61,476 nt of DNA, taken from positions 1-61,476 of the forward strand of contig JAFGFL010000058.1 of assembly GCA_016931055.1 (NCBI GenBank). Reading direction: 5' to 3'. The notes beneath the pieces were generated by a model. It did not search any database. It saw only the letters and a program-made list of their open reading frames with translations, and was not told where the DNA came from. Numbering within the stretch: position 1 is the stretch's first letter; each line of letters begins with the position of its first letter. The stretch comes from Candidatus Omnitrophota bacterium (GTDB taxonomy: Bacteria; Omnitrophota; Gorgyraeia; Zapsychrales; Zapsychraceae). This document shows, piece by piece, positions 8,698 to 61,476 of this stretch. A program made the translations under genes and the position numbers.

Positions 8698-9657
8698 ATG
8701 CCGGTTTTAAAGGACCAAAGGACACGAATTTTTTGTTTTATTTTAATTTTAGCGATGGCCGCTCCGGGATGCGACTTGATCAAATCGATAAAGGAATATT
8801 TTCAGGAACCTGCCAATCCCCCTGCTTCTCAAACAGTTACAGCTAAAGAAATCGCAACTGTTAAGACACCGGCAATACCGGCACCGGCTTCTCCTATGAC
8901 GGCCAACACGCTGGCCCGCGTGGGCGGCTGGTCTATTACACTCGAGGAATTCCAAGAAAGGCTTGATGCTTTAAAAGAGGTTGTCCCGGAATATGACATC
9001 ACAGACCTGGAAGCGAAGAAACTTGTCCTTGATGAATTGATTAATCAACAGGTGCTTGTGTTAGGGGCGGAAAAAACGGGATTGTCTCGAGAAAAGGATA
9101 TTCAGGCCGCGGTCGAAGAATTCCGCCGGACGCTCATCGTCCGTGAAGTCGCCCGCCAGCTTACCGAGAATGTTGCGTTCTCTGAGAAAGAAGCCCGGGC
9201 ATTTTATGACGAGAATCAGGCGGAAATGGTTGGCCCGGCAGAGTGGCATGTCAGAGAGATTGTCGTCGATGCCAAAGACGAGGCAACGAGGATCTTAACG
9301 GAAATCTTAAATGGCGCAGATTTCGCCGAGACGGCCAAACTATATTCTACCAGCGAAACAGCGGGAAAAGGCGGGGACCTCGGCTTTATTACGGAAGAAC
9401 CTTTCCCCCAGATGGGCAGCGCTTTACTGCCGTTGGAGGAAGGAGATGTCAGCAGCGTATTTAAGGGCCCTGCCGGATATTACATTGTCAAATTGGAAGA
9501 GAAAAAAGGCGGGAACGTGCTTGGCTTTGATGAAATCAAAAAAGACATCATGGAATCGCAAACATTAATGAAACAACAGCAGGTGATCCTGGATCATTTA
9601 GAGCAATTGAAGAAAGATATGGAGATTGAAATCAACGAACCATTATTGTCGCAATAG
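8698..9657 (+). CDS. Parvulin-type peptidyl-prolyl isomerase lipoprotein (SurA/PrsA-like)
   Basis: Lipobox 'MAAPGC', SurA-like N-domain, and PpiC rotamase signature 'GGDLGFITEE...GYYIVKL'. Confidence 0.8.
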   Translation: MPVLKDQRTRIFCFILILAMAAPGCDLIKSIKEYFQEPANPPASQTVTAKEIATVKTPAIPAPASPMTANTLARVGGWSITLEEFQERLDALKEVVPEYDITDLEAKKLVLDELINQQVLVLGAEKTGLSREKDIQAAVEEFRRTLIVREVARQLTENVAFSEKEARAFYDENQAEMVGPAEWHVREIVVDAKDEATRILTEILNGADFAETAKLYSTSETAGKGGDLGFITEEPFPQMGSALLPLEEGDVSSVFKGPAGYYIVKLEEKKGGNVLGFDEIKKDIMESQTLMKQQQVILDHLEQLKKDMEIEINEPLLSQ

Positions 9658-9721: not shown

Positions 9722-10594
9722 ATGAATATTGAAAACAAAAGGCAGTTCGCCACAATCCTCTTGGCCGTCGGGCTTGGGCTGGTGGCAGCGATGCTGATGA
9801 GCAAGGTGGTCAGCGATAAGGTTGATCAACAGACAAAGATTATCGCGAAGGAATACCAGGGAAGAAGCGCCGCTTTGATCAAAGAAATGGATGAGACCAA
9901 GCAAACTTTGAAAAAATTGGCGAAAGACCATGCGGAACTTGCTAAACGGGTCGCGCAACAACCCAAAACGATTGTGCAGCAAACCGCCGCCCCCACTCCT
10001 GAGAAGCCAACCATTCAGGAGATGGCATTTTCTTTACGGACTCCGCCGGGCAAAAGGGCCATCACGATCAGCATCAATGCCCTTTCAGCGGTCGGCGGCC
10101 TCTTGAATCCCGGAGATTTTGTCGACATCATCGGGCATCTGGACCTTCCGGACGGGAATGATCAATCTTCTGCGAAGAAACAAACAGCAAAGGGAGAAGA
10201 AAAAGTCATAACCGTTTTGTTCCAGAATATCCAGGTATTGGCCGTCGGGACCAACTATAACCCGATGGGAGAGATCCCTCCGTACGAAACGCAGCAAAAG
10301 GCAAAGACGTTAAACGTGACATTGGCCGTAAGCCCTGAGGAGGCAGGCCTTTTGACTTTTGCCGAAGCGCACGGGGAGCTTCAACTGTCGTTGAGGTCGC
10401 CGGCAGAGACAGAAGAACGGGTGTTACAGCAAGTTGCTTCTTGGGACGCATTATCAGAATTTGTTTTGGAGCAGCAGGGGACAGATTTGAAGGTCCCCGT
10501 GAAAAAATCAACGATCGCACCGGGAGGCGAAGAAGAAGTAGGAGAAGAAACCAAACCATTTATCCAGATCTTCCGGGGAGGCAGGGAGCTATAA
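9722..10594 (+). CDS. cpaB: Flp pilus assembly protein CpaB/RcpC
   Basis: N-terminal TM helix. C-terminal RcpC/CpaB signature 'PGKRAITISINALSAVGGLLNPGDFVDIIGH...VLAVG...VTLAVSPEEAGLLTFAEAHGELQLSLR'. A coiled-coil region replaces the usual SAF domain. Confidence 0.75.
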   Translation: MNIENKRQFATILLAVGLGLVAAMLMSKVVSDKVDQQTKIIAKEYQGRSAALIKEMDETKQTLKKLAKDHAELAKRVAQQPKTIVQQTAAPTPEKPTIQEMAFSLRTPPGKRAITISINALSAVGGLLNPGDFVDIIGHLDLPDGNDQSSAKKQTAKGEEKVITVLFQNIQVLAVGTNYNPMGEIPPYETQQKAKTLNVTLAVSPEEAGLLTFAEAHGELQLSLRSPAETEERVLQQVASWDALSEFVLEQQGTDLKVPVKKSTIAPGGEEEVGEETKPFIQIFRGGREL

Positions 10595-10597
10595 GTT

Positions 10598-12250
10598 ATG
10601 CGAATGGGCAGATTATTTAAGACAACGGCCGGTTTTGGAGTAGGACTATTTCTCTATCTGGCATTGGGGGCAAATCCTGTTATGGCGGATATGGATGAGC
10701 ATTCAGACACGTTAGATTCCATTTATGCCGATGAGATCTATATGGTCAAAGGAGAGCTTGTCACTTTGAAGGTTTATTCGCTGTCGAGGGTTTCGGTGAC
10801 AGACCCGATGATAGCGGACATTGCTGACGCCAATGATGAGGAAATTCTGTTGGTTGCCCAAAGGAGCGGGGAAACCGCCTTGTTCATTTGGGATGAGCAC
10901 GGGAAACGGACGCTCATGGTTTATGTCTATAACCGGAGCTTAGACCTTGTTGCGGACAGGACAAAAAGACTTCTTAAGGATGTTGGCATTCAGGGGCTGA
11001 AGATAACAGCAAATGAAAAGGAGGGGAAAGTTGTTATTACAGGGGAAGTGCCGGAAGATAAAAGAAGGCTTTATGATGAAATCGTCATGAGATTCAGCGA
11101 TGATATTATCAATCTTGTCGAAGAGGAAGTCATAGTGGACCTTGTCCAGATCGATATGCAGATTACGGAACTGAGCACAACTCTTTCCGAGAGCCTAGGG
11201 ATTGATTGGTCCACAGGAAGCGTTCCGGGCATTGCCCCGCAATATGAGGAAGAAGTGCCAGACTTCGACGGCAGCATCAGCGATTTCTTTAAGATAGGGG
11301 ATTTTTATAGGACAGGGCAGCTGGTGGCCGCCGTTAATGCGCTGGTCACCGAAGGGAAAGGCCGCATCCTTTCGAAACCGAAGCTTGTGGTCATAAGCGG
11401 AGAAGAAGCAAGGTTCCTCGTTGGCGGTGAAATCCCCATCCGGACAACAACGTTTTCCGAATCGGGCTCCTCGCAGGAAAACGTGTCGTTCAAGGAATAC
11501 GGGATCAGCATGACCATCACTCCGACGATCAAGAAGGAAAAAGTGGATGTTGTTATGAATCTCGAAGTGAGCGAAATAGACGCTTCGACCGCGACAACGA
11601 TTTCCGAAGAAGTCGCTTTTTCAACGCGGTCCGCGAGCACGCATCTGTATCTGGATAACGGCCAAACGATCGTCCTTGCCGGCCTGATTAAACATCTGGA
11701 AAGCAAGACATTGAGCAAGGTTCCTTTTCTCGGCGATATCCCTATTTTGGGGCTGCTGTTCAGGAGCCGGGTTAATCCTGTCCCCCAACAGGACCAGGAG
11801 CTTGTCATCGCGTTAACCCCGTCTATCATGCGGCAGAAAGAATCGGCAGAATCCCAAAAGGCCCCTGTTGTTGAGGGAAAAAATGTGCTTCCGTTGGCGG
11901 CAAGAACTGCCCCGTCCTTTAAGGATGTGGCACCTTATTATTTGGGCATTCCTAAAGAAATGACCGGATATGTCCATAATGTTCAGCAGAAGATATCTCA
12001 AGCGATTGTGTACCCGAATGAAGCCCGGCAATACGGCTGGGAAGGAACGGTAAAGATAGGAATGCTGATTTTAAACGATGGCACGCTCGCTTTTGCTTTA
12101 ATCAAAGAATCTTCAGGGCATGATGTTTTCGATGAAGTCACTTTGAATACGACGAAAAAACTGGCACCTTTTGAGGCGTTCCCTCCCGACACGGACCTGC
12201 AGGAACTGAATGTCACAATACCTATTGTGTATAGTTTGCGTAACAATTAA
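10598..12250 (+). CDS. cpaC: CpaC/RcpA-type secretin with C-terminal TonB_C domain
   Basis: Signal peptide. Pilus N-terminal domain ('RVSVTDPMIADIA...EILLVAQRSGETALFIW'). Secretin core ('LSKPKLVVISGEEARFLVGGEIPI', 'VPFLGDIPILGLLFRS...ELVIALTPSI'). The last ~90 aa, 'IVYPNEARQYGWEGTVKIGMLILNDGTL...ESSGHDVFDEVTL', match the TonB C-terminal domain pattern. Confidence 0.8.
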   Translation: MRMGRLFKTTAGFGVGLFLYLALGANPVMADMDEHSDTLDSIYADEIYMVKGELVTLKVYSLSRVSVTDPMIADIADANDEEILLVAQRSGETALFIWDEHGKRTLMVYVYNRSLDLVADRTKRLLKDVGIQGLKITANEKEGKVVITGEVPEDKRRLYDEIVMRFSDDIINLVEEEVIVDLVQIDMQITELSTTLSESLGIDWSTGSVPGIAPQYEEEVPDFDGSISDFFKIGDFYRTGQLVAAVNALVTEGKGRILSKPKLVVISGEEARFLVGGEIPIRTTTFSESGSSQENVSFKEYGISMTITPTIKKEKVDVVMNLEVSEIDASTATTISEEVAFSTRSASTHLYLDNGQTIVLAGLIKHLESKTLSKVPFLGDIPILGLLFRSRVNPVPQQDQELVIALTPSIMRQKESAESQKAPVVEGKNVLPLAARTAPSFKDVAPYYLGIPKEMTGYVHNVQQKISQAIVYPNEARQYGWEGTVKIGMLILNDGTLAFALIKESSGHDVFDEVTLNTTKKLAPFEAFPPDTDLQELNVTIPIVYSLRNN

Positions 12251-12356: not shown

Positions 12357-14537
12357 ATGAGCTCCAAGACAATCGCGGTCTTCAGCAACAAAGGCGGAGT
12401 AGGAAAAACATTTGTCGCTGTGAATTTGGCCACGGCCTTAGCCCACGCCAGGAGAAAGGTCCTTCTCCTCGATTTTGATTTCCAGGCGGGACAGGATATG
12501 GCCAGGATGCTCAACCTCTCCCCCCGCAATGCGATTGTCGATGTTCTGGCGGGATTTGAAGCCGACAGTAAAGCGGATATCAAAGAATACGCCGCCATCC
12601 ATTCCAGCGGCCTGCATTTCCTTCCGGTGGTCAAAAGCACCCAACAAATCGGACGGGTCACCCCGGAAAACATAAAACCTTTCTTTAAAAAAGCCGCGGC
12701 AGAGTATGATTACATCCTTGTCGATGCGGGCAGGTCGCTGAACGAAACATTGATTACGGTGTTCGATTATTCCAACCTGATCCTTCTGGTGTCAACTCCG
12801 GATATCTTGGCCGTCTACCAGGTCAAGAGGTCTCTCGACGTTTTGCAGAGCCTGCAGTTCCCTTTAAAAATGGTAAAGCTTATCTTGAACCGATCGGAAA
12901 GCCGGGGAAGCGTCGCTTGGCAGGAAGTGCGCTCGGCCTTGCCCTGCGAAATATTCAGCCATATCCCTTCGGACGGCAAAACGGTCGGGATAGCCTTAAA
13001 CCGGGGGATCCCTTGCGTTATCGACAGCCCGAAGAGCAAGGTGGCTGAAGCTTTTTTGAAGATGGTCCCGGTGCTCCGACGGGAAGATTTATACGTTCCC
13101 GCGACAGAGGTCGAGAAATTAAGGAACACGGAAGGGCTGGACAAGCCGGGACAGTTTTGGGAAAAGTTCGGGATCACGCAGCACGGCGCCGTGGAGGAAA
13201 AGGCGTATTCGAGCGAAGACGACGAGATCCTCCTTTTGAAGAAAAGGATCCATGAAAAACTTGTTGAGCGGCTGAACCTGGACGGGATCGCCGCCGAACT
13301 CTTAAGCAATCCGGAAGCCGTTGTCCATGTGAAGAAATCCGCCGAAGAGGTTGTGACCAATCTGCTGACCGATGAAGCCGGAGGGAAAATCGCTTCTTCG
13401 GAAGAGCGCCGGCGGCTGGTCAACGATATCGTCAACGAGGCCTTGGGCCTCGGCGCGCTCGAGGATTATCTTGCCGACCAGGACGTGACCGATATTATGG
13501 TCAACAGCAAGGATGAGCTCTATATCGAGAAAAACGGGAAACTGATCCTCACTAACAAGAGGTTTGTTTCGGATGAAAAAATGCGGTCCATCATTGAGAG
13601 GATCATCGCGCCGTTAGGCCGGCGCATCGATGAATCAACCCCCATGGTGGACGCGCGCCTTCCCGATGGGTCGAGGATTAACGCGATTATCCCGCCCTTG
13701 TCGCTCAATGGCCCGATGATCACCATACGGAAATTCGGCAAAGAAAGGCTGCAGGCCGGGGATTTGCTCCATAAGCACCATAGTTTGACGCAGGACATGT
13801 CCGATTTCCTGCATGCCTGTGTGCTTGGGCGCCAAAACATCATTGTTTCCGGAGGAACGGGCGCGGGCAAGACGACGCTTTTAAACGTTATTTCCGAATT
13901 TATCCCTGACGGAGAGCGCATCATTACCATCGAAGACGCGGCTGAGTTAAAGCTGAAAAAGAGCCATTGGGGGCGCCTTGAGTCCCGCCCGCCGAATATC
14001 GAAGGCAGAGGGGCGGTGACCATCCGGGACCTATTTATCAACAGCCTCCGCATGCGCCCTGACCGCATTGTCATCGGGGAATGCCGCGGCGCGGAAGTCT
14101 TGGACATGCTCCAGGCGATGAATACGGGCCACGACGGGTCCATGACAACGCTTCACGCCAATTCGACAAAGGATGTTTTGACCCGCATGCATTCGATGAT
14201 CCTCTTAAGCGGCATCGAGCTCCCGGTCCGGGCTATCAACGAAATGGTCTCATCGGCGATCAATATCATTGTCCACATAAACCGTTTTTCCGATGGGACA
14301 AGAAAAATCACCGGGATTACGGAAACGGAAGGCCTAAGCGAAGACTACCAGTTGAAACTCGCGGACATCTTTGTTTTTAAACAAACGGGGATCGACAGTG
14401 ACGGCCGGGTCCTCGGGGAATTCCAGCCCACGGGCCGTATCCCGCGCTGCTACGATGATTTTATCACAAGAGGCCTTCCGATTAACAAGGAAATGTTCCA
14501 GCCGAAAAAGAGCAGTGATATCCGGGAAGATGCTTAA
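12357..14537 (+). CDS. cpaF: CpaE/TadZ-like (MinD/ParA) - CpaF/TadA secretion ATPase fusion
   Basis: N-terminal deviant Walker A 'SNKGGVGKTF', as in MinD/ParA-type CpaE. The C-terminal part has Walker A 'GGTGAGKTTLLN', 'ITIEDAAEL', 'RMRPDRIVIGECRGAE' and 'NTGHDGSMTTLHAN', as in CpaF/VirB11-like ATPases. One 726-aa ORF. Confidence 0.85.
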   Translation: MSSKTIAVFSNKGGVGKTFVAVNLATALAHARRKVLLLDFDFQAGQDMARMLNLSPRNAIVDVLAGFEADSKADIKEYAAIHSSGLHFLPVVKSTQQIGRVTPENIKPFFKKAAAEYDYILVDAGRSLNETLITVFDYSNLILLVSTPDILAVYQVKRSLDVLQSLQFPLKMVKLILNRSESRGSVAWQEVRSALPCEIFSHIPSDGKTVGIALNRGIPCVIDSPKSKVAEAFLKMVPVLRREDLYVPATEVEKLRNTEGLDKPGQFWEKFGITQHGAVEEKAYSSEDDEILLLKKRIHEKLVERLNLDGIAAELLSNPEAVVHVKKSAEEVVTNLLTDEAGGKIASSEERRRLVNDIVNEALGLGALEDYLADQDVTDIMVNSKDELYIEKNGKLILTNKRFVSDEKMRSIIERIIAPLGRRIDESTPMVDARLPDGSRINAIIPPLSLNGPMITIRKFGKERLQAGDLLHKHHSLTQDMSDFLHACVLGRQNIIVSGGTGAGKTTLLNVISEFIPDGERIITIEDAAELKLKKSHWGRLESRPPNIEGRGAVTIRDLFINSLRMRPDRIVIGECRGAEVLDMLQAMNTGHDGSMTTLHANSTKDVLTRMHSMILLSGIELPVRAINEMVSSAINIIVHINRFSDGTRKITGITETEGLSEDYQLKLADIFVFKQTGIDSDGRVLGEFQPTGRIPRCYDDFITRGLPINKEMFQPKKSSDIREDA

Positions 14538-14560: not shown

Positions 14561-14911
14561 TTGATAGCCATCACCAATACAACCAAGAATACGCTCATTG
14601 CCCGCAACGGGCGCTTGGCCGATACGTTCTTCTCCCGCATGATCGGCCTTCTTAACCGGCCTTGCCTCCCAAAGGACGAAGCCCTTATCATTACGTGCTG
14701 CCAATCGATTCATATGTTCTTCATGCGCTTTGCGATCGATGCCATTTTTGTAGACAAAAAGGATTGCGTGGTTGGCATTGTTAAAAGCATCAAACCATTC
14801 CGTTTAAGCCCAATTTTCTTTAAGGCAAGTTATGTCATCGAAGTCCCAGAAGGGGCTATTGTCCAATCTGAGACGTCTATCGGTGACAAAATCCAGGTAC
14901 AAAATAACTAA
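14561..14911 (+). CDS. DUF192 domain protein
   Basis: 116 aa with a TTG start. 'ADTFFSRMIGLLNR...IHMFFMRFAIDAIFVDKKDCVVGIV' fits the DUF192 pattern. Confidence 0.6.
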   Translation: MIAITNTTKNTLIARNGRLADTFFSRMIGLLNRPCLPKDEALIITCCQSIHMFFMRFAIDAIFVDKKDCVVGIVKSIKPFRLSPIFFKASYVIEVPEGAIVQSETSIGDKIQVQNN

Positions 14912-17456: not shown

Positions 17457-17637
17457 GTTGTTCTTTTAAATGGCTAAATACGCCGAAAGGCGTTTTAATC
17501 CTTGGCTTGCTCGTTTAAGAGGCCGGGGATGCCGGCGGCCGAAAAGGCGCCGGCAATAAAGCCCTTTGGAATTCTGGCCTTACCAAGAAAGGTAAGGAAA
17601 GGGCAGGATTATTTGTGAGGCACGTAAGGTGGCCGCG

Positions 17638-17799
17638 ATGAGGCTAACAGGTAAATGGAATCATAAAGGTCAAAGTCTAATCGAATATGCCATGGTCGCG
17701 GCGATCGTTTCGGCAGCCATTATTGCCATGAGCACCTACGTGTACCGTTCGGTTCAGTCAACCCAGCAAATGATTCAAGAAGAATTCAGCAGTCATTAA
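17638..17799 (+). CDS. Flp-like pilin (53 aa; below the ORF-track size cutoff)
   Basis: Hand-translated: MRLTGKWNHKGQSLIEYAMVAAIVSAAIIAMSTYVYRSVQSTQQMIQEEFSSH*. It has the 'KGQSLIEY' prepilin motif plus a hydrophobic helix, with 'aaggtgg' upstream. Confidence 0.6.
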   Translation: MRLTGKWNHKGQSLIEYAMVAAIVSAAIIAMSTYVYRSVQSTQQMIQEEFSSH

Positions 17800-17933
17800 G
17801 TACCTTCAGCACGATTTTGTCAGCGCGGAAGTTATTTGTCCCAGGAGCAATCTTGGCCATTTAACCAGAGAGCGTGTCTGGCAAAGAAGTTTTGAAGGTA
17901 CTTTGAGCATAAAAATCTTAAGGAGGGAATACA

Positions 17934-18146
17934 ATGCTTAAAAGGAATATCATGTTAAGGCCTCAGAAGAAGAAAGGTCAAAGCACGGTTGAGTACATCA
18001 TCCTTGTTGCGGCGATCATCGGAGCGCTGATTATCTTCTTGCCGGGGACGTTTAAAACCGCATATAACGCCGCTTTAATGAGCGGTACCGATGGTATGGA
18101 GAACATGGCAAACCGGCTTGCTGAGTCCAGACCGTTGTCTCCGTAA
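17934..18146 (+). CDS. Flp-like pilin
   Basis: 'KKKGQSTVEYIILVAAIIGALIIF'. AAGGAGGG RBS. Confidence 0.7.
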   Translation: MLKRNIMLRPQKKKGQSTVEYIILVAAIIGALIIFLPGTFKTAYNAALMSGTDGMENMANRLAESRPLSP

Positions 18147-18181
18147 TTAAGCCTAATGATTAAAATCAGGAGGAAATATCA

Positions 18182-18547
18182 ATGTTTAGAAAATTGATGA
18201 AAAATAAGAAAGCGCAAAATACCGCCGAATATGCGATTCTCATATCGCTTGTTGTGGCCGGTATTATTGCCATGCAGACCTATGCTCAAAGAGCATTGCA
18301 GGCAAGGGTTCGCGACGCTGGGCAATACCTGAAGAGTGAAACAGAAATCCTAGGGTCAACGGTCCAGTACGAGCCTTATTACCTGGAAACGAATTATGAA
18401 GTTTTTCGTAATGAAAGTGATACACAGAGATTAGACAGCAATACGACCCGGCAAGAAACGGATTCAACAAGGACCCGGACACAGGATGGTTATCAGGTAT
18501 CTACTTATAACACAACAATGTACAACGCCCTTGTTAACGGCATCTAA
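18182..18547 (+). CDS. Pilin/pseudopilin-like protein
   Basis: 'KNKKAQNTAEYAILISLVVAGIIAMQTYAQRALQARVRDA'. AGGAGGA RBS. Confidence 0.65.
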   Translation: MFRKLMKNKKAQNTAEYAILISLVVAGIIAMQTYAQRALQARVRDAGQYLKSETEILGSTVQYEPYYLETNYEVFRNESDTQRLDSNTTRQETDSTRTRTQDGYQVSTYNTTMYNALVNGI

Positions 18548-18603
18548 TTTTTGCAGGAATAATCTTCTTCTTGTAAGGAGGTTAAACTTAGGAGGATAAA
18601 TCA

Positions 18604-18933
18604 ATGTTCAAGTATTTAAATAGAAAAAGACAAAAAGGGCAAAGCACCTTGGAGTATGCAGTCCTGATTATCATCATCATAGGCGCGCTTCTGTCCATCC
18701 AGGTGTATATCAAGCGTGGTGTTCAAGGCCGGCTGAAAAGCGCTACCGATGATATCGGGACGCAATTCTCTCCGGGGAATACCAACGTGGTCAAGATTAT
18801 GACGACCTCAAGCCAGTCTCGAGAGACATTCTTCAGCGGTGAAACCAAATCCACATTATTGGGCAATGAAGTCACCAGAGACTTAATGAACTCTGATATT
18901 ATGAACATCGAGCAGGAATACTGGGGCGGATAA
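18604..18933 (+). CDS. Pilin/pseudopilin-like protein
   Basis: 'RQKGQSTLEYAVLIIIIIGALLSIQVYIKRGVQGRLKSATDDIG'. AGGAGGA RBS. Confidence 0.7.
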   Translation: MFKYLNRKRQKGQSTLEYAVLIIIIIGALLSIQVYIKRGVQGRLKSATDDIGTQFSPGNTNVVKIMTTSSQSRETFFSGETKSTLLGNEVTRDLMNSDIMNIEQEYWGG

Positions 18934-18954
18934 CCGCAGGCAGGTCGTTAATAT

Positions 18955-59100: not shown

Positions 59101-61476
59101 ACCTGGCCGAAACCCGTAAAAACTTTACCACGTAAATCTATGGGTGTCAATAACGATATTATTGGAAATGCGGAGGGCGTGGGAGTCGAACCCCTGACCC
59201 TTTCGGGCCGCCTGGGTTTCGGCCAGGTCCAGTCCACCCCTCTGGTAGCGCCCTCCGACTTATGGACCATTTCACCCTTAAATGACAAAGAAATGCCGTT
59301 GGCTGATAATGCAAACGGATTTAATGCTTATGCGTCGCAAACAAAAATTATAAGGGGATTAAAAATAAATCAGAGGGATATGACGAATGGTGTTACTTTA
59401 ACACAGACACCTCCTTTTGTCAACTCTGCGGCATTAGCATTAGCATTTCCCACGGCAGCTTCCGGAGCTGCGGCGGGTTCAGCGCCAAGGCTTTCCTCGC
59501 CGGCGCAACTTGCGCAGAGGGAAACAGTTCCAACGGCAGCACCTGGTGTGGCGCGAGAGCGCGCCGCTTCCTCCCCGGCACAAACCGGACTTCAGGAAAC
59601 CCAAACTCTTGCTGCCCGCACGACCAGGACTTCTTCATCGCCGATCACTCTGTCGAAAGCATCGAAATATATAACTCCTTTGGTAATGACTGCTGGATTG
59701 TTGTCTGGTTTGGGAGACCGGGGGGAGGTCGATCAGCGGGATTTACGCTGGAAAGCAGTAGATGTGAACGATATGAAACAGGCAAGCCAACCCAAGCTGA
59801 CCCGTATCACAGACAAGTACAACGTGCCTCCGACTTGGGATGCTTATGTCGCGTCCGCGAACAAGGGCACTTTTGATTTGTCCCGATATAAGTTCATGGT
59901 GCTCGCTCTTAGCCAGGAAGGTTCTGCGAGAAACATGGTGGTTGAGATCATCGATCAGAAGGGCCGAAGCAAGAGACTGAATGATGATCATGTGGGGCGA
60001 ATGGGAGACCTATCGGGAGAATGGGCCTTAAGCCATGTGTATACGCCGTCGTCTAAAGATACAACGGCGGTCATTAATCTCAATGATTTTATAAGAAAAG
60101 TTGATCTTAAAAAAGTGACCGAGATCAGGATAACCATGGGGGATAATTATTACACGGTTCCATTGAATACAGAGCGGGGCAATATCGTTATCAAGGGAGT
60201 GGATTTTACAAACGAAGAGATGACCGTAACGCCGAATGTCCCTTATAAGGAATTCAAGGAGTCTGCCCTCCGCAAGGCTGAAGAGATTAGGAAGCAAAGG
60301 GCCGCGACGGCTCAAAAACCTTCGCTTCCGAGAGGAGTGTTTGAAAGAGAAACAGCGGTTTTGGCGAAGGGCTTTCTGAAAAACCGGATTGCAACTATTC
60401 GGAGTCTTGTCGACAAGATCCGGAAAGGGTCAACGGAAGACCGGAAGTACGCCAAGACGTTGTTATTGCGCGAAGCCAACAGGCCGGAACAGCATATCAA
60501 TTTAAGGCGGTATATCTATAGCGAGCTCAAAAATATATTTGGCCCGGATATCTATAAGGACATTTGGGATGATTCGGTCAAGCGGGCTTATGAGGTCAGA
60601 GAGCCGATCGTTGTGGATCTCCTTTCGAATCAGCAAGTGAGGGATTGGGTTGCCGCGAAACGGCTGGCGATGGGGAAAGAGAATCCGCCTGAAATCAGGG
60701 AGCCTGTGGCCGTCCGCCATGTTTTGGACCGGAACGTCATGGAACGGCTCGCGTATTGGTCCATGGTCATGAATATCGATCCAATGACGGTTACGTTCCC
60801 GACGGTTTATACGGAATCCTTGTTAGGGGCGCACCCGGAGAAGACTTATAACATCATGACCGTTCATGCGGCGGACCAGGATGGCGCCCTGGATTCGGAA
60901 GGAAGAAAATTGAGGGATGCTGTCCTCGCGGAATTTGGGCAGGACAGTACGGACAGGATGCTGGATTTGAATATCGTGACAGGATTGATCCTGATGCAGA
61001 ACGGTTTTAACACTTATGAGAACGGGCAATTGGCACAACGCCTCCAAGGGTATAACGGTTATGGGCGGTATCCGTGGGCTCCGTTTGAAGGCGTGAGCAT
61101 GAGAGAGTTCCCCGCCATAGGGATGATGATTGAAAAGATCGGCCAAAAAATGCCGGCGGCCCTCCAGAAGATTGTGGACGAGACCGCAGCCAAATATCGT
61201 CTTACGGTCCCGAAACTCCCGTCCGACCTGCGGGGATATCAGATCGGAATAAAACGGGATACCCGTAAAGATGAAATGATGACATTGGTCAATGAAAAGA
61301 TCAACGATATGGTCGAAAGAGGGAAGATTCCTGCGCCGAAGAATTGGATCAGTCGGACGCTGGCGCAGCGGCCGGCCGCTTCCTCGCCGACTTCAACCTC
61401 GCAGGTTGCACCCCGTCAATTAACCGGTGGGGTGCTACACCCAATCGGTGAATTAAGGGGTGTTGAAGTCGGTGAG
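32152..61476 (+). CDS. Giant membrane-anchored multidomain protein, over 9,775 aa, 3' end beyond the window
   Basis: ATG 32152 is preceded by an in-frame TAA at 32128-32130. There is no frame-1 stop through base 61476 (29,325 nt). The track shows no stop-bounded + ORF in this frame. Hand translation of many stretches gave open, protein-like sequence. The N-terminus carries a TM helix and a C39-like peptidase motif pair. Confidence 0.85.
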   Translation, partial: MSDRPDNFELPGSWMVPYESPSHKGDKTFAKAADISASDVMRMQNINNVGAGFTPAQRQDGGVFRSRFSGWVRTVALAVVLVFLPEQASWAFNYNPMTLWGRKGQDVVSVSPDASPDEAVSARIAASVSNLLNQIAYKENARVQLQLAADHDHVGAGFTPAQKGQGHPQGVPLLIDSETVFTNNRIRRITEWLRQPEIHPLNCGVYALKDILASYDVDAPLEELSVSSLMVDLLNDIVQPGEEKLKTSLFAIHKIVEAYGLGLKAAKLAPEDVLKLKTPFIANFESEHFVTVNSVDNSRVYYSDIGRAQVLSIPEFTAQLTGFVLAPDLEEQENAAFEYLPDSLTPFIWGNKYVDRSDELPGLISGWSLGIGAAIQVGAAFGAAYLTTLGGALGAIGGFMGGNSSFVFSLGVSQFAGSMAQVCMMKWGCSEMQGMILSTAISTGATMGLAAAEKALAQNAAAASLENQAGSMANTMAGSAEAMVGAAAYNGVAESMKTSVWQAALIGVAKGLAIGAGSTYIEYKVAEGLDEILPEGMNQVIRDGIISIGSSFAGQGAVLGGAGAIGGAISGAGSEGQGWFKGMLSGMKTGFVNNMNLVFNKNALKGLGFKFAALGLRALLDWADGGKGAFAGDSMLSQAIGMFTEVFLMSFTQDSALEAKHKAVAAEEGKKAYDAAIRTQAGVSDDISVKDALGKAGDALQKAIWEQKAKEVHDETYEATLTKLENLHEIAFADKDDKADVDIADGQLTVKKGDKLGTFQIATAKELYADKMAGVFLDETTKAGNLAMADLKVKTEESGEAETDETKQLYLAAMAEASGIEEADPEGDLKAAFTRGRRNEALSQVQALMDGETNAWKSIAMKGFISMALAYAMDAIEEGRVKGPRAGDRQTDRMTLLKLRGIWSLSGALYSTGATLLSNVFRPAEPLEKGNNDGLVADLSKLNPEELKEARKIYEAQGKLEQFEAELTMNKSLLLTALDEYIAEPMLGMLADIGTLDGILTEYERPGSFAYGYLPEEAAAAALLGFMKWNDAISEMNGWTPTRTLWLAKTNEQTEEGMRRANRMSRVAPKTIKEVYEMVERRKTRLSPEDLEKNIENQKTLNLARMMDPGENLMNYFLDALTSKLGFHMISEESPFLVGSEYLASTAGAGGALKKIGLNERYLSKIALNVNPNPDGTLNFDKASYYYVGMRGREHYAGEGKTDILLGRLLGHGRRGDFYFEGDGGTQRDFNFSGLFLKEREKLGLDKGAIVYTDKDGRRVVRTVGKGGEISLEEGLMNSDAILVLGGVFQPVAGVETTVNFGTFRNQRKEIALSAGLEKTTDVQGRLQNKVVVNQTERTAPDGRLHYDNGLAMLAKAKEENPLLSLEEQRAAYWNGVLGYKDDVATRVLGATQDWVESPSGPEAVAKAEKQKREDWDKSMYENMAAFIRGEEMPTSPWLTDEEKTKIFTEAEEGRESYVAGLDNNGVPIIKQGKRVHVAFAESSGVRDESGEQDQRMQRVSLAGDGTQTALAAEEVSRLSEVQHFRNNGTLTREDIGQLAALYEEHHADKSVYSIEKFIDETFQFSPRSKLGKELKAGLEFYLAGREGGSPDATFDLDLYDKRPEDGGTLTMGILSKSQTPKGATQLKSETLFTLPANAEGKRNYLMQQLDADKGRGGFIQQIISDAPLAAISGWQEFTGMKDTFNVASEGGVLQAERAVYSHSNLVGLHTPGALDDLKKLMVIESVKQIVREIQDLPSSVSGAHGRKFDFKVLLGRLKASGNPVNEKDIAFYEEQFASINGDTKKLTRGQMIAIEAAIGAYQISNGKKATFDFDWKDWEGALPEGGMDQEGEAKPTSSPLPWYEHSYNGLGNLLVHLYPDSLETGDNALIKVALAIKTLPTTDAEALNAQVQLALQGINLNEPVVETPTSKAFVDMLALKMKGGDGKTYINLGLDEDEKLTGFQLDGYLVRDESPEALARGVTNQTLYRIGKEGGSPMGEEFSIAMFGRPDDAVLGLDPDMRLLKLANNFDQLEQHGFETKFGMGSYFYTGELGENDKGALLPTQGSFIGPGGKLAVGTAVKNYGLGILRGSDGKPEYFHQGLYRKQATATLLAMEQQNEKLYYQELESGGYDQRVLIEGDLKAAYGQDDTVDRFYLDESTNVWRIKGLPWFPISFLNVKTKTGKKVVKDFIDENGISEERLEQYLLAKMPHLAGKIKFDRVKDEKTGEEDMVVSSEATYSRVHQTAGDFLMAMPTPEEEETNAYLNWAMINAISKGTLNDTTRDMKLHKGSYLNPTTGEFGTANDGNFVPQNSEMIIINRKKEVESKAADDTGRKMAETMKYGASPLKSDNETIVSPGEARISPVVNGLINAVTGSSGWILGRGETFFSMEGNVGQNKGTIDDVDFSELGAKKNEDGQLTPGPGERGTRFITMLNRRLGNFTFDGSVSPLTKNDITFGLNNGVLDFSIDLAGGDIQGIGRTYDENGLVDISSFIQASFGLRGEGDRMVKEGGEGDPRYKSYATVNNNAAYGIQNGEFVTEKNIAPDSFVLTKGVPNKLTAFARDNQTEQNEPEKIEVDFDNITVDDGRLILQAFSKGNEGSQGVFALNDLLKAVSQKPKGQTSLSQNNEGKEKEPSAVASDVDLEKLDRSNKIVKLTLDPEKKNQVLNMQLTTGGPKFNAFEAGNKFFVKPGDFSSKDQNGQEKSEKERRWLSTGRRTDEVDENGNPTGRLFHQDRDKTYYEGTDPVTIAILGNGIIDWGSADWRGETKEKGVGLAPRFTNKPLPEGARKGVIDYEAAGMQSSRQKEKGGPFTFGWDRIYADTVKGKMYTPGPDGQNRMVLARIVGTMNTSEGWALTFRGEMSQPDIDAKGDSSGKAGILFGQQRFRYEDMVLNGEKASLVHADSAGESYNLVLGDVDQDLNIFLGPTANFVNSTKVKPEGYGMRSITQEKIKAAETVLALMQKAKEGKLPDVELSKDQFGRETKSALRVELMRLAALAGKEYAQYAEAVHANPDLLNIAITGLSTEGVAVSVDEGLLQSLITQWYGEKVPIETVTKNWGDGMVTQQTVSVEKDEMGQEKRVARKVVPYIFGQKNGENQVVNILIGDGDTGIMHPVIFGSDGKRIFGDTEIAVQGKEQNGQIALNYDYGNDGLIEATVEGKPVSLYMDTTNENNLRVLNPGQSTTIIGQENEDGLRDKTVVSPGQVPQQSILLGSREYKLIYMAEGNRMYRNAEGALIYRDDVGRIISEEQYAKDIAPINQRLVKQFKKEVVFGDISGGENASWRAAPSTWQRLKNAVLNPIDWISAEYQSARHDESRRQKFEKETGVFTSPKLSGILVQLTEEPLGVLQLSAAGFGVAVNGFEYGPKTLQLGNQGMHQILSEGVDSSFEASSTEIQFSRGEQRAALVGGLLDLAVVAAPLARGTAVGLEAVGSSILPRLAPLSLKAAGYTVGASTGITALDLALEPDSGNRNSSGLILLGMLEDLGGRQVIRTVDRKLDMLGITEGGLAARIDKQRSDEKAALIDSLNGNAFGIAALGGISTAKAYLQWATGAMALEILGNPQEAGEGLVDTAKYILNFKGSEDLPKNPDGSIDWAAVVYAGGSLLGTMKGAPAFGKNLNALSVGRVGYIAKPLRGLAAAAKATPMTAATMTGLSIVIPNFFQNVPFAQAVNSTATNMDSIIRDSFVYGGLGSGISALKNSAFMPGPAWVKASGLSLGMGGLSVGADYLSSLLHGEDYGWGRGFTAFGTGVALALASGGLAKATGLGAKIGKLSQGKQALVYGPTAGIISGISGSAATSMFGGTGTFGDWKSFGAHVVLPGALAGMAAKAPRNLSGADIGGGHMLFWERVANKFGLTTREVLKSKFDGTPYLSSAGKMLRLNFTTKSGGINWYGIRQASPLATGLTAAVSVSALPDSLFGDTRAEAIQNKIAWQKAIGAATATVMFWGLRGKDTSGKGLKAFIEEGKGLRQGKLYGNILSAGGVGLAVFAPDSWYKGLGLDEEKAAKVKSVVQTLAVANLLTGIAGYRNVWKASKKSALFEKEGMMANVAKSGVGRLLKAGRLESGGLKVGLMPKLARGANTTLQYGAKAANFASKSGIYWPATFAFPYAWNAILGENTKPEFRTGMALALIAGGIMIPGMRPFYKDMGQKYHMLETGKFGLFSYKIAETALPVIPALTIGMAFMTDIQSMVFHKEGPWMNLLQIGLGKDDFNQMLEQTEIDGMRKTYDEHYNRLKGQMSGSQAFWYLQGKMLAASTLNDIGKREASGEITPEQAKIERESITAVTDFGVVSGFRNRIRANSAWEGFKTALYFGPILSFARPLLAEGLGRVPIMGQFQAFAGEGGAGKGIGDRLFRMRYLSPRTLGARYANNLLKAVDMTQGLAMEEYVREVVAQRLFIDPLFQKSGMKIYSDVDSPEFARQQFGFETFQESFESVGKFSASRIGAAVLEGMTSDAIRAAKLEYSRGAGMNPSVQLPSVDEINALLASGNLADQQEGFRLIQTLPKGAELTLEVLNVAGKPAYMDAGNYIFEVENQSSWAQPMEVYTKHLSNVANGATDLQLMDTLSSEGDAAMETTKEAAAFTLSQRFDPETMARILAERDSNGTISLPGENMPIVQTSVLLPHIYQRIGTTEGLMDQVHEAFSRLVSPQAQSLPATSDFVVSSLRTYQSPLIGQYSGVSKTAQQLVATDFNSHSLMSDYYRTYSSYIIPELEWTQEEGERLEAKLGYRLSLAESGVSSPMQYLVNPFRRGVVRREIISREYSNGVNRRNEISRQIDLIKKADLKNYKEQHLRAFLIESGMSSEQVDEYIVKATDEELKVMQSQHVKKLGQEVNYLERIIGYQEGQLGKVLSGERPKTSLLQRVLPGPTTRKLAVQAYFDQKESKSEIAQVSLSMGLTPEDQGWQDIMSVRRDKAKVSHDSETGRIVKKVDLSGFSGDKEALGQHLASKIRSLNSFSVSGFDSKVEVSGIIDGKVVISYNEITPTQGLRGLALLDRASLIMEEIRGKNIIEASRIAGAGGGNIGLWLNNIERSDRYNMSDAAYTLSGILGSSLGPSVNGVGGVGRLTRQLENSAYQEAIDEYRQEQELQQAAGAAGRQDIVERSEGALDMMRFIWKRSSQEGKRGGFTAPNARAKGIKRISEEMLVLPDTHMDLTFRAKGEAKAQEMINSESRKKKILKKTIKTLNKLESLGIDKRKLEGLDYNTIFNFSDILVHLTNPEATEHGGPAESLPGTGSGDPFSVRLNIRTLLTNGDYSSDIDAILNHELTHIVLHRVAQETGMNDKGLRIGEMANERMVDAVTPREIEDMAYYGTVRFPRTTSGPSILGSTGTPGGHAGAHDGQFRQRADLDPARNRAKQVGTFGQGTNAYEIYIVDGLEADGFGKGFGEDNKVYVDQESWDANPNVADNVDVQHEIKELAQANRIGRGLQGKTAAEMTPTEAFSRVNQNQREIEVLGLSHENAQIKVPEMDIKEAQAPPVMAQGQIAPIAPVLSAPIVQPQLPDLTPNIITPAAPITPNIISSPVLILGSNNQPSSLKDKAMMTNPEALAGEVKAETAQFINRGASDIRIPGSDLTFRPGDQLIYDRPQTIAIPKADGSVDQILVREQTIAAPTVINGTRLEPGDKVVSYDNNTSAVQDRSTGEIKLALRGGTQMPAMPKTQAVKVNDQQFANFELADVFDLSRESPQRTAVQLDNPSIRVRLFVASSDIGVETNAQEPVILDNDHQNKVSARIELPETIGRFQNVFVTEQRREHAAQEYRYDPSLNEADIQDSFQAAIHEAAKIEPSIKDAKIYKVTAPLSTIKQEFETFLADAYGQDSVRYDMAKALTRNEVPAAYAMPEMEDGRKVIVVYEQAAQTRYGLHENPIVAALEHEALAQAELSDTEVIATQLARRTVMVQPVTPTQFSAQVARDTYAQKTGFEVIDFKDLPAATPGVAVGQSMARPDVAAARPLSSPLMILGSNQTIGTSSFNVAKAKPIALVETNIKDQAQRIPLPGRISENVERIYNPVNRVTTLNNLTGRPIFIESLRTTIPAGVTSYTDVLAVPLADGTVEQALVNGDSLAAPFKEYKAGDPVFRNGNDVILMNRDDPQQSMVFQFRPGIAMPEAPEVQTVKTGRKIGEHLTIESEDFNRAGESVKTRFSVDYELARQIETATGRKIKIGTNEMTTQEFRSLFSGVNELKTLQREIINTETPKGIEAVQGDIDILEKKLAGLGEETKPERDRLARIKDKDNTDAQMFVYEMAPAAIDKHIADQMASFDLTALQKTRLLFELNDQTLGGFAEKTNDGKEAVYVFKEIAQNNPRFPETPVAEVIHHELLALNGAADGENLKIQMDRAGATEVRGSVQTPSEFQASMVLDAHKAEAGYRTLSLSDYAAQNNIDMTELTRKMQTMREETVMGTPIEPISTPEVKAGQYALRASSPAAREVAKRLMNELGVPEASSSITRTVSGDSFETDYQTQQERALAGSSPIGLPPASQTRDSLRPAGTVSSPTQADRLYDSRINPMTTGPPISKMDPPAAMSSPMIREVSRAVSSPADSLRTGGEVSRTTSSPVAVERPAVSSPMLVRKMGSLGKGITLLDMREKTFLRAWPYNSEHAGFDLGREMPAAQSAFRKWQVASQRPVKNPFKGIFSAVSVRSINVADVDNLTEMAVRQRNFTEMVRSAITLTESQKNRIEERKNNGEKENGFVKAQKIFNLKAVASRIDLNIVNAQEATLLFAAFKDLGDFESAAYIYENVPDQDFRGSTVNREFYAVALNKIGETDRSIAVSEQLIKEGHGNGEVYAALGKAYKLKGDIHKSYEYYRDGFLKDFEYYPGINAAYNLIEMGQDQQGERMSKMVYFTAEMAGGLRSNDYWAVATMLEAALMARQYETGEGIKRIENALNRVDQVGRHEWEIDSTLGNMKKLRDARAGKNEDVTIFDKAITRLKTKRDSIHTLDAQETAVPIIDDRNDLTRAFIKVAFHYKGINSSFVVGNYRVGAKLNDHTINRVDLATVRSILETVGLSGTTDVEKFKRSIDKVIRAQFDTEHMEDLHGARHDVFDRHAAGTKEISGADITGDSRTNVITDFLIGQGDCRHHAYFKQLAFDVWKRDSLNRLLQKAYNANMGGDVAGYEQYMRDAVELDRTQMYVVDQQVWPEIEVEELYVAKTDKEGKYIKADSFQHYESHTLNVLAKFGEDGNLDQLKQADSFYQSKYDWADHDARPSLSKDGELILDGGTIKAIGENGKEVEARVVLKPEPFSGQRDQASADEYSQTRFRGVTIDRPADPTKLMHNSAFDTGFHQAIKQFAFSVGKYSPQSMNEIQKANVARIHELTKQIIGRDQVTHQDYQDVQDWIINPLFDRFRPERMARGSFTEDTWIAYQHHKGVDQYEKEPFKWDESKVNKETLALLIAADKVHGKVAGLIEDRFRSSGRVELLLTLAADSHNSYYRGEVRNMLQDNGLVAELDFLTDSDIALYMNEGKGGFSEKFKARRTNPKYKDKLKLSDVKEGKRAEFLSKALNHQLETMESSLGQEAYRDAAKELYDPMKEKYASMLARVNDIQKTSNTPEEVEQKVMAEFGGHKINTIAQPWKTLVQEANNYGQSRTARTDYLYGLQRAPVVTNIMVMNMDNVIDDLALRAGERGIMKEAVDEPSLNSAALRSVNALWRVTNPWNSYDGQISLAFSIEDADGLLGTTEIKKDDVVLRPNLSAMYQAAAKATVGLTDFDRYSPQIEQWADLDRRIDEELGKLGVAANETNRNEVRKLLDVSGTFGSVSYAPWTVVLKTGPRGEGTQFVQDRQTEVDRRFFEAKKHINNNNFAFAETSVKGALSFLNSVSASGTESGAGSLQDYGLARDVLSSLDRAGRLPEEGRPVLQALNQGLKGADLERALTDSLWSMPVQARVLENVISDVDKGNLAQLLTQAEQSSAGGEFVTVTDSSRKLQPQRQMKVSVHADRSIKLKPEDTIDMREKDMDHMIIFGDQEFGYFAAQYDGLSSMPRVFGLVDQEMRPIKTEIDGQFDRGIQFVEIEGFNQNYLMDSYEHHVRLSQLIQEKEGLETQAKMLRDQQLETVDQIQFTRNHNEIQRVQRAIRNIDIEILENQRERGVTYYTRISPVMAAASSPAMMAERQAVVLNTRLFSPMQARRTSIDTRPSVSSVRSWAAKSGHRISSAQANEARNLLIEYESFTFIKGGRKEIREYLIKQNVAPHTADVVSFLGDIQRTIQEEVNHIDAVQSSLEMGGSERVRNIAYRIADAKVNHGLNIDTVTAIPLSDGVDITYVRDRLGDIDPRQILFVGRENGKEVYRNGNLEIYENGVESISGNVRVIIGHEGMIDQQIGKMINDAITRNAAAVREGTGMPRYVVGENGERVVLETIGQGNQLRLDLTSMDMDMDAMDKKVDRKAIAIALSNWIRGLSTQKFEGQDLRIQDVQVFSPQEAPELRRVFRLGPDLDRAAIVIRDRNGKTRLLVSSLVVSEIAAHRKDQTGTELGKLISEGLQYQEGEQVRSPIVQGFRNLFEYGAEKAREFIQSDVADIEMVDFDGDLMELSTEQAPVYFPQKPVETYTFGEWASLIDGRSMAAERIPGIPEPPVPTSTSQVAPRQLTGGVLHPIGKLRGVEVGKRPAVSSPMRVQIPKQSLPTAMGLMLLGAGGVWVAADKALTGPDKDMFAAGQQISVKIEPKELQVPTGPSVPSVENYKEVAFSVLSTKRGKSYAAEKSRKLHNDIKERLGKDVPTAIASSKVKDHYYVIAFTDEATIQEAKKKIPDVEEYFPLWRLTDAGRIEFDDDFEIIRAVDNIINEIPRLDADKRDYLRNVLVVTGFSETNALRKFTDQLNGGPAKGWFNMEPATALDIIQNFIRGKEDLKNAIKTVTEKDWDKIRKWKKPYLAQKLKDDGNFAAFMAGMQYLRKWTEVEGKTYEQAYKDVYNTWKGKAVVEEVRAKVRQADLYMKKAEQLKGAGQPKYNPAARATRPSSSPVEVSRLKAISFSPVVKKESEAISSPAFKGATQLLSETGTWPKPVKTLPRKSMGVNNDIIGNAEGVGVEPLTLSGRLGFGQVQSTPLVAPSDLWTISPLNDKEMPLADNANGFNAYASQTKIIRGLKINQRDMTNGVTLTQTPPFVNSAALALAFPTAASGAAAGSAPRLSSPAQLAQRETVPTAAPGVARERAASSPAQTGLQETQTLAARTTRTSSSPITLSKASKYITPLVMTAGLLSGLGDRGEVDQRDLRWKAVDVNDMKQASQPKLTRITDKYNVPPTWDAYVASANKGTFDLSRYKFMVLALSQEGSARNMVVEIIDQKGRSKRLNDDHVGRMGDLSGEWALSHVYTPSSKDTTAVINLNDFIRKVDLKKVTEIRITMGDNYYTVPLNTERGNIVIKGVDFTNEEMTVTPNVPYKEFKESALRKAEEIRKQRAATAQKPSLPRGVFERETAVLAKGFLKNRIATIRSLVDKIRKGSTEDRKYAKTLLLREANRPEQHINLRRYIYSELKNIFGPDIYKDIWDDSVKRAYEVREPIVVDLLSNQQVRDWVAAKRLAMGKENPPEIREPVAVRHVLDRNVMERLAYWSMVMNIDPMTVTFPTVYTESLLGAHPEKTYNIMTVHAADQDGALDSEGRKLRDAVLAEFGQDSTDRMLDLNIVTGLILMQNGFNTYENGQLAQRLQGYNGYGRYPWAPFEGVSMREFPAIGMMIEKIGQKMPAALQKIVDETAAKYRLTVPKLPSDLRGYQIGIKRDTRKDEMMTLVNEKINDMVERGKIPAPKNWISRTLAQRPAASSPTSTSQVAPRQLTGGVLHPIGELRGVEVGE
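32296..32320. repeat. GTAGGGGCAGGC...GCCTGCCC palindromic element, in-frame in the giant ORF
   Basis: 'gtaggggcaggctttacgcctgccc' translates as VGAGFTPA. The identical 25-mer recurs at 32611. Confidence 0.75.
32611..32671. repeat. Compound nested palindrome, in-frame in the giant ORF
   Basis: 'gtaggggcaggctttacgcctgccc...gggcacccgcaaggggtgcccctac'. The outer arms GTAGGGGCA/TGCCCCTAC enclose two inner hairpins. Confidence 0.75.
32690..33150 (+). other. Peptidase C39-like (papain-fold Cys protease) domain of the giant protein
   Basis: 'HPLNCGVYALKDIL' (Cys codon 32758-32760), 'ESEHFVTVNSV' (His codon 33013-33015) and 'YYSDIGRAQVLSIPEF'. The order and spacing resemble C39 bacteriocin-processing peptidase domains. 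Confidence 0.45.
57832..57921 (+). repeat. 90-nt repeat, copy 1 (inside the giant ORF)
   Basis: 88/90 identical to 61387-61476. Encodes 'PTSTSQVAPRQLTGGVLHPIGKLRGVEVGK'. Contains the inverted arms CTTCAAC/GTTGAAG and GCACCCC/GGGGTGC. Confidence 0.85.
59171..59256 (-). other. tRNA-like (class II, degenerate) sequence antisense to the giant ORF
   Basis: The reverse complement folds with a perfect 7-bp acceptor stem (GGAGGGC/GCCCTCC). It has the T-loop context 'GGTTCGACTCC', a 5-bp variable arm with a GAAA loop, and a 5-bp anticodon stem with loop CCGAAAC. The T-stem has 2 mismatches, position 33 is C, and the D-arm is poor. Confidence 0.35.
61387..61476 (+). repeat. 90-nt repeat, copy 2 (truncated by the window end)
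   Basis: See copy 1. Differences are at the positions matching 57894 and 57919. Confidence 0.85.

Follow-up and report, generated by a model that had tools for sequence, protein, structure and literature searches.

A stretch of 61,476 bases (positions 1 to 61,476) of contig JAFGFL010000058.1 from a Candidatus Omnitrophota bacterium (GenBank assembly GCA_016931055.1), which we call the window, carries the genes of a Tad (type IVc, Flp) pilus followed by the gene of a giant, putative surface protein. Bacteria of the phylum Omnitrophota are widespread and ultra-small and seem to live as predators or parasites; the longest known proteins are encoded in their genomes. We lean towards a reading in which the pilus and the giant protein both serve in contact with host or prey cells. 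The co-oriented, plus-strand Tad/Flp-type cluster spans positions 8698-29772 (21 kb) and ends 2.4 kb upstream of the giant open reading frame (ORF); every gene listed for it in an initial annotation of this DNA was recovered in place. That annotation also implied that the pairing was new, a claim that falls, since both the association of Tad genes with giant genes and the predation hypothesis are already in print (West-Roberts 2023; Seymour 2023; Nielsen and Lui 2026). The window shows a Tad machine and a giant gene paired in clean form; as the core is already published, its value is confirmatory and descriptive. Our analysis adds the typing of the machine as Tad, recurring gene fusions, a block of genes like one in the Kil system of Myxococcus xanthus, an aspartate cluster, a C39 catalytic triad and a locus without a prepilin peptidase.

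Searching with the first 800 residues of the giant protein returned 22 homologues (best, 58% identity), and those with named sources came from Omnitrophica/Omnitrophota except for one metagenome-assembled genome (MAG) labelled Elusimicrobia. Giant N-termini were aligned (A1), and with this alignment we scanned a single genome of each GTDB species; this yielded 110 relatives, and 80 loci were kept. These are labelled as Omnitrophota or 'uncultured Planctomycetales' MAGs, plus one Elusimicrobia and one unclassified. Synteny was then scored by tblastn of the window proteins on the loci, with some counts taken over 84 loci. Sixty-one loci had 4 kb or more of sequence upstream of the giant N-terminus; in 58 of them TadB and TadC lie directly upstream and share its strand, and the gap between TadC and the giant gene has a median of 1,089 bp (range 400-5,832 bp). 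Where at least 9 kb of upstream sequence was available, two further pilin-like genes of the window, encoding proteins of 1,448 and 122 amino acids (aa), were also present (48 of 50 loci). For the reverse test, an alignment of TadC (A5) was run against metagenome contigs; 27 of these had at least 3.5 kb of sequence downstream of TadC, and in 25 a giant N-terminus follows in the same orientation. Five loci break the adjacency (L026, L064, L069, L119 and L151). The initial annotation had named a lack of conserved synteny as the outcome that would overturn its proposal; the two counts, 58/61 and 25/27, instead make the genomic linkage of Tad and giant genes firm.

Gene order is kept well beyond the immediate junction. 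Three loci, L085, L086 and L087, hold in succession a peptidyl-prolyl isomerase (PPIase), RcpC, a secretin fused to TonB_C, a MinD-TadA fusion, a DUF192 protein, a protein of 550-660 aa without a known family and orthologues of ten of the eleven pilin-like genes. The rest of the order is supplied by the paired loci L010, L012 and L021, where the 122-aa gene is followed by TadB, TadC and the giant gene. Both fusions, MinD-TadA and secretin-TonB_C, were present in each Omnitrophota locus that was inspected for them. The giant N-terminus itself has diverged to 31-52% identity across loci, and residues 800-3000 were matched in only 6 of them. A link to Omnitrophota, which the initial annotation had raised, is borne out by named homologues that are nearly all from Omnitrophica/Omnitrophota.

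Judged by its sequence, the locus is of Tad type and not a type II secretion system (T2SS), because it contains a TadA-like ATPase, a split platform, CpaB and Flp-size pilins; with its secretin, it is the kind of machine that had been proposed. The ATPase is a 726-aa fusion (12357-14537) of a MinD/CpaE(TadZ)-like half (AAA_31/ParA, aa 4-236) to a TadA/CpaF half (T2SSE, aa 365-640; E = 2.7e-58 in Pfam). Among NCBIfam models it scores highest with the TadA family TIGR03819 (317 bits, under the equivalog cutoff of 373); models for GspE and PilB reach no more than 34-42 bits (GspE TIGR02533, 42 against a cutoff of 630). Nearly all of the best 120 matches listed for this protein are full length (~720 aa), at 66-92% identity, and all named sources among them are Omnitrophica. 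The platform is encoded by two genes with one T2SSF domain each, TadB (285 aa, 27792-28649, E = 2.1e-16) and TadC (292 aa, 28894-29772, E = 5.8e-14). We found TadB at 42-78% identity in 64 loci and TadC at 51-78% in 66; the exact TadC sequence occurs elsewhere in only one short Logan contig. CpaB/RcpC (9722-10594; PF16976, E = 6.4e-26; TIGR03177, 106.9 bits, cutoff 71) precedes an RcpA/CpaC-like secretin (10598-12250; T2SS-T3SS_pil_N; Secretin, E = 1.6e-42) that ends in a TonB_C domain (aa 470-547, E = 1.3e-14 in Pfam), as do its counterparts in L085-L087. The initial annotation had counted three core components with additional domains; two such fusions could be verified, those of the secretin and of the ATPase. 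The marks of a T2SS in the strict sense were not found: the GspE score is low, the platform is two single-domain genes and scans of the window ORFs detected no GspC, GspL or GspM families.

Classical Tad sets, such as Aggregatibacter tad and Caulobacter cpa, include about 3-5 pilin-like genes. Like them, the window encodes Flp-size pilins of the G↓xxxxEY type, a TadA/CpaF ATPase, separate TadB and TadC, an RcpA/CpaC secretin with RcpC/CpaB, a TadZ/CpaE-like ATPase and TadE/F/G-like pseudopilins. Unlike them, it joins TadZ and TadA in one polypeptide, adds TonB_C to the secretin, has 11 pilin-like genes and includes an extra PPIase, a DUF192 protein and a 631-aa protein. No TadV/CpaA, TadD or RcpB was found in the window's locus, and no prepilin peptidase (Peptidase_A24, TadV/CpaA) among the scanned window ORFs; the enzyme would have to be encoded elsewhere in the genome. 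A 219-aa membrane protein (1595-2254) was considered for this role and rejected, as it had no family match at E ≤ 1.

The three extra genes are conserved with the machine. The PPIase (8698-9657, plus strand like all genes of the cluster) is a lipoprotein with SurA_N and Rotamase_2 domains in Pfam and a lipobox ending in AAPGC; it opens the conserved cluster and has orthologues at 49-51% identity in L085-L087. The DUF192 gene (14561-14911; PF02643, E = 1.4e-18) follows the ATPase in these loci too and is a conserved cluster member. The 631-aa protein (15096-16991) belongs to no Pfam or NCBIfam family and has no sequence match in the PDB; it has a weak N-terminal helix-turn-helix (HTH) match and, by eye, a sequence without an obvious hydrophobic stretch. 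An exhaustive HMMER search gathered 694 cluster representatives at E ≤ 0.001, among which longer forms of the family carry no informative domains and weak HTH matches recur. Its 550-660-aa counterparts occupy the same position in L085-L087.

The eleven pilin-like ORFs lie within 17629-27642 and share a class-III signal, that is, a short basic leader, the motif (G/A)↓Q-x-x-x-E-(Y/F/L) and a hydrophobic helix, with the exception of the 1,448-aa protein, which lacks Glu5. Two are of Flp size. The 56-aa product (17629-17799) matches Flp_Fap at E = 2.8e-6 (27.4 bits, under the cutoff of 32.2), and the 70-aa product (17934-18146) matches Class_IIIsignal at E = 9e-6 (25.9 bits, above the cutoff of 23.7). 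Both carry a KG↓QSxxEY motif, with the Glu5-Tyr6 pair of short Flp pilins, and have orthologues at 53-71% identity in L085-L087, making them candidate fibre subunits. Five genes of 105-134 aa follow (18182-18547, 18604-18933, 19143-19532, 19537-19941 and 19997-20314); all five encode a class-III leader, E5 and a hydrophobic helix, and have one-to-one orthologues in unchanged order in L085-L087. The remaining four form a conserved block before TadB, with products of 595, 139, 1,448 and 122 aa, which holds the large Cys-rich proteins.

Within this block, the 595-aa product (20346-22133) is a TadE/F-like minor pilin with 20 Cys, the leader KTA↓QTAVEL and a single transmembrane (TM) helix, and without a Pfam or PDB sequence match. 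Its family was found in 48 of 84 loci, with a median of 492 aa and 10 Cys over 34 complete ORFs. The small 139-aa ORF (22172-22591) bears a KA↓QVLLEF motif and probably has its true start at an internal position; its homologues, in 39 loci, always lie between the two large genes. The 1,448-aa protein (22888-27234) has 54 Cys and resembles TadG and KilN. It has three TM helices altogether: a class-III-like N-terminus, then two extra conserved helices that form a hydrophobic helical hairpin (aa ~92-113 and 125-148), after which comes a large ectodomain. It has 44 homologues, the named ones all from Omnitrophica, and over 49 complete ORFs the family has a median of 1,204 aa and 44 Cys. Many of the Cys are conserved and D187, D193, D196, D198 and D200 are invariant, a cluster that looks like a metal-binding site. 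AlphaFold2 (AF2) models of aa 150-860 and aa 1085-1448 reached predicted local distance difference test (pLDDT) scores of 67.9 and 75.8, respectively, and a Foldseek search of both against the PDB returned nothing at E ≤ 0.001, in line with the lack of a PDB sequence match. The last gene of the block, encoding 122 aa with 8 Cys and an FG↓QSVMEF motif (27274-27642), has homologues in 59 loci, directly before TadB.

Since Glu5 is missing and two further TM helices are present, we class the 1,448-aa protein as TadG-like, only pilin-like rather than a fibre pilin. The expanded set of eleven proposed in the initial annotation therefore stands for the class-III leaders and needs this qualification for its largest member. 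Both the expansion and the fusions are real and are kept in other Omnitrophota genomes, and from their conservation the large Cys-rich proteins are a feature of the phylum. A side case is P0179 (L088, 145-4278), a 1,377-aa product whose first 540 aa match the 1,448-aa family (45% identity) and whose remainder is a GH20 hexosaminidase. We rejected it as a modular, enzyme-bearing pilin: its contig runs into OEP/RND efflux genes, not TadB/TadC, and the likeness ends at aa 540. It is probably a chimeric metagenome assembly.

In architecture, the 595/139/1,448/122-aa block resembles the KilL/M/N tip clusters of the Kil system, a likeness that does not imply homology. Kil is a Tad-like pilus that M. 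xanthus uses for contact-dependent killing of prey (Seef 2021, PMC8460266). Its minor pilins form 'Tip' complexes (KilL/M/N), in which a large TadG-like subunit carries a distal domain whose fold is unknown and for which many disulfides are predicted, and sequence hidden Markov models restrict the tip genes to Myxococcota (Herrou 2025, PMC12075869). The two systems share a Tad-type ATPase, a secretin, RcpC, TadB/C, a Flp major pilin, several TadE/F/G-like minor pilins and a predatory lifestyle. Kil differs in having no adjacent giant gene, in encoding its own prepilin peptidase (KilA) and in depending on a needleless type III secretion system. The large protein of Omnitrophota is also bigger than its Kil counterpart (median 1,204 aa, as above) and has two extra TM helices.

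The giant gene is represented in the window by its 5' 29.3 kb (32152-61476, plus strand), 9,775 codons without a stop that are cut by the window end; frame 1 is open from 32131 and the first ATG is at 32152. In the encoded protein, a TM helix (aa 68-84) comes first, and hydrophobic clusters rich in Gly and Ala lie at aa ~363-651 and ~3328-4169. A Peptidase_C39 domain (aa 202-327, nucleotides 32755-33132, E = 4.9e-9) follows the first helix. Its triad of C203, H288 and D304 is invariant in the 23 giant N-termini of alignment A1, and because of this invariance of Cys, His and Asp the peptidase is probably active. Processing by C39 at the GG before the TM helix was considered and dropped, as the GG is not conserved in homologues. 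Further along, aa ~6675-6902 (52174-52857) match MAP3K_TRAF_bd (E = 7e-12) and TPR-S (E = 3e-9). Besides C39 and TPR-S/MAP3K_TRAF_bd, the 9,775-aa portion matched no other Pfam family, and neither half of it had a PDB sequence match. ARAGORN called an 87-nucleotide tRNA-Phe (GAA) at 59170-59256 on the minus strand, opposite the giant ORF. As Rfam has no tRNA at gathering score in the window, the call is probably false.

West-Roberts 2023 (10.1101/2023.11.21.568195, section 11 and Fig. 7A) describes a locus that it terms 'type II secretion system-like' with Omnitrophota giant genes, in which gspD, gspE, gspF, rcpC and a Rotamase_2 PPIase accompany many small genes with class-III signal peptides, and it places C39 domains near the N-terminal signal peptides of the giant proteins. 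The window has the same gene content, from the same phylum, and a co-oriented giant gene whose N-terminus carries a TM segment and a C39 domain as described there. The archaeovorin of that paper includes glycosyl transferase, methyltransferase, glycosyl hydrolase, peptidase, NUDIX and SecA_DEAD domains; the first 9,775 aa of our giant protein show C39 and TPR-S/MAP3K_TRAF_bd only, the remainder lying beyond the window. Nielsen and Lui 2026 (10.64898/2026.06.07.730766) confirms the association: secretion or pilus genes flank 13 of 14 giants there, and the flanks include a 'Tad-pilus assembly cassette' and genes with TonB domains. Within the text available to us from these two papers, the locus is not named a Tad system, and there is no mention of secretin-TonB_C or MinD-TadA fusions, DUF192, the ~600-aa protein without a family or large Cys-rich pilin-like proteins. 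The window is also unlike the published loci in that an insertion parts its Tad locus from the giant gene.

Of 116 Velamenicoccia species, 74 were counted with Tad complexes and 77 with giant ORFs, and the families DTHP01, Fen-1317 and 4484-171 are without Tad (Seymour 2023, PMC10066038). Candidatus Velamenicoccus archaeovorus LiM, of the same phylum, has a Tad complex (CP019384.1, 12382-29832) and a 39,678-aa giant protein with multiple TM helices, a likeness drawn from published description, as the LiM genome is outside the 80 loci and the window's giant protein is known to aa 9,775. As PMC10066038 relates from Kizina 2022, LiM expresses its Tad complex in co-culture with Methanosaeta, the prey archaeon, and peptides of its giant protein are ~3-fold higher in attached cells.

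Building on these features, we outline how pilus and giant protein might act in contact with another cell. The Flp-size pilins would form an extendable fibre, assembled by the fused ATPase on TadB/TadC and pushed through the TonB_C-bearing secretin. The nine other pilin-like proteins could prime or cap this fibre, with the Cys-rich block making a disulfide-stabilised tip or base complex that, as in the KilL/M/N Tips, would touch the host or prey cell. For the giant protein we picture an anchor in the inner membrane, formed by its N-terminal TM helix and the later TM clusters, which would hold its apparently active C39 peptidase just outside the membrane. Encoded directly downstream on the same strand, the giant protein may act in the same contact, in attachment to and attack on the partner surface. 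The LiM observations lend this model experimental backing from a relative, and the Kil Tips offer an analogy. For structural or proteomic work, the window offers handles in the fused ATPases, the secretin-TonB_C protein and the eleven pilin-like genes with their presumed disulfide-rich, tip-like block, as well as in the three-TM TadG-like protein, the invariant C39 triad and the locus without a prepilin peptidase.

Several observations weigh against this contact model. A physical or regulatory tie between pilus and giant protein is putative, and the export, display or anchoring of the giant protein by the machine, as had been suggested at the outset, is inferred from gene order. Co-transcription of the two in the window is doubtful, because a gene on the opposite strand, for a REP-associated tyrosine transposase (RAYT; REP, repetitive extragenic palindromic), and the 2.4-kb spacer intervene; a simple scan also marked terminator-like hairpins in the spacer. 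As in the window, no A24 prepilin peptidase is listed among the genes called in L085-L087. The three TM helices and missing Glu5 of the 1,448-aa protein suit a fibre tip no better than an anchor in the inner membrane, and an adhesive or enzymatic activity of its ectodomain is unsupported by the AF2 models, because these match nothing in the PDB. Lastly, the genes for a 2-hydroxyacid dehydrogenase, a nitrilase (CN_hydrolase) and Mdh (within 4761-8556), directly upstream of the PPIase, are syntenic in L085-L087. As these housekeeping genes are equally syntenic in the three genomes examined, conserved order is a weak guide to shared function.

This last point leads to the view that pilus and giant protein are only neighbours, acting independently in a host-associated lifestyle and kept adjacent by vertical inheritance of gene order. 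It is consistent with the three housekeeping genes, which have no evident pilus link, with the five loci in which adjacency is broken, with the mobile element between the two in the window and with Seymour 2023 (PMC10066038) counting Tad and giant ORFs as separate traits. We nonetheless consider it unlikely: adjacency holds in 58/61 and 25/27 cases even though the giant N-terminus has drifted to 31-52% identity and the rest has diverged beyond recognition, and strand and short gap are conserved with it. Of low probability, too, is a Tad-derived secretion device, in which a short pseudopilus of minor pilins would work as a T2SS-like piston to push parts of the giant protein, fragments released by C39 or exoenzymes through the secretin. 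Its appeal lies in the unusually large minor-pilin set (9 of 11 genes, against two Flp-size pilins), the need of the giant protein's extracellular segments to cross the envelope somehow, the conserved, active-looking C39 peptidase beside the first TM helix and the tight adjacency in most genomes; the accessible wording of West-Roberts 2023 ('type II secretion system-like') points the same way. Such a device is harder to square with an ATPase of TadA type (TIGR03819, 317 bits, against 42 for GspE), a platform split into TadB/TadC in place of GspF, the lack of GspC/L/M in the window ORF scans and the conservation of Flp-size pilins, and neither a secretion signal nor cleavage sites were recognised in the giant protein.

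A bolder proposal sees in the Tad-derived machine no ordinary adhesive pilus but a dedicated apparatus for handling the giant protein. In it, the 1,448-aa protein and its Cys-rich partners would be a membrane-anchored adaptor that couples the pilus motor and TonB_C secretin to the giant protein, and giant segments or C39-released fragments would be threaded or pushed across the outer membrane onto prey. We hold this to be quite improbable; if true, it would be a new functional class in the type IV filament superfamily. We give a negligible chance to an artefactual origin, for example as assembly chimeras or non-coding open frames, of the giant ORF or the large pilin-like ORFs. The chimeric look of P0179 and the REP-like repeats inside the giant ORF could be cited for it, but an open frame of 9,775 codons cannot arise by chance, and dozens of homologues of the giant N-terminus and of the large pilin-like proteins keep Cys and catalytic residues and have matching pilin-like lengths. 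Joint action of pilus and giant protein in cell contact stays the most likely of these readings.

The spacer between TadC and the giant gene (29773-32151, 2,379 bp) contains only the RAYT/Y1 gene, REP-like hairpins and AT-rich non-coding DNA, in keeping with the initial annotation, which had seen a RAYT mobile module and repeats there. The RAYT gene (29999-30520, minus strand) matches Y1_Tnp at E = 5.3e-8 (33.5 bits, above the cutoff of 23) and NF047646 at 71.9 bits, just under the cutoff of 80. Inverted REP-like hairpins at 29783-29855 and 30619-30718 bracket it and share a 16-nucleotide core, ACCCACTTCGGGAGTG; hairpins headed by GTAG lie nearby, as expected of a RAYT. A perfect 23-bp palindrome lies at 29805-29855, just past the TadC stop. 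By tblastn, only 7 of 84 loci have a match resembling RAYT, so RAYT is a window-specific insertion and no part of the system. Rfam found no RNA family in the window.

Repeats of the same style extend into the giant gene. An exact 30-nucleotide REP-like repeat, ACGTAGGGGCAGGCTTTACGCCTGCCCAAA, with a GTAG head and a hairpin, has two in-frame copies at the 5' end of the giant ORF (32294-32323 and 32609-32638), each encoding VGAGFTPAQ. An inverted REP-like hairpin (32647-32671) accompanies the second copy, and the pair lengthens the linker that precedes the C39 domain by ~11 residues over homologues. These repeats look like REP/REPIN insertions tolerated in coding sequence near the RAYT gene. A 144-aa ORF (31728-32162) overlaps the start of the giant gene, and its low-complexity translation (PPLWGG.../HQGGG) derives from G/C-rich palindromic repeats (31966-32050). 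It was rejected as a conserved small gene on account of that translation, and ORFs at this position in L002-L004 are not conserved.

Upstream of the Tad cluster, a 465-aa PilZ-PilT fusion ATPase (3248-4645, plus strand) was confirmed at the 3.3-kb position noted in the initial annotation (PilZ, E = 2.7e-7; T2SSE, E = 5.6e-37; TIGR01420 pilT_fam, 373.8 bits, cutoff 319). We regard it as peripheral: housekeeping genes separate it from the Tad cluster, and it occupies the same relative position in L087 (56% identity) and not in L085 or L086. A glutathione S-transferase gene (5781-6488) among the housekeeping genes is present in the window only and not in L085-L087. At the left edge of the window lies an AAA_14/DUF4143 ATPase gene (93-1310, minus strand). 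Matches to this family were found by tblastn in 6 loci, and in L004 a family member (7941-9160), split in the assembly, sits directly upstream of the giant N-terminus homologue.

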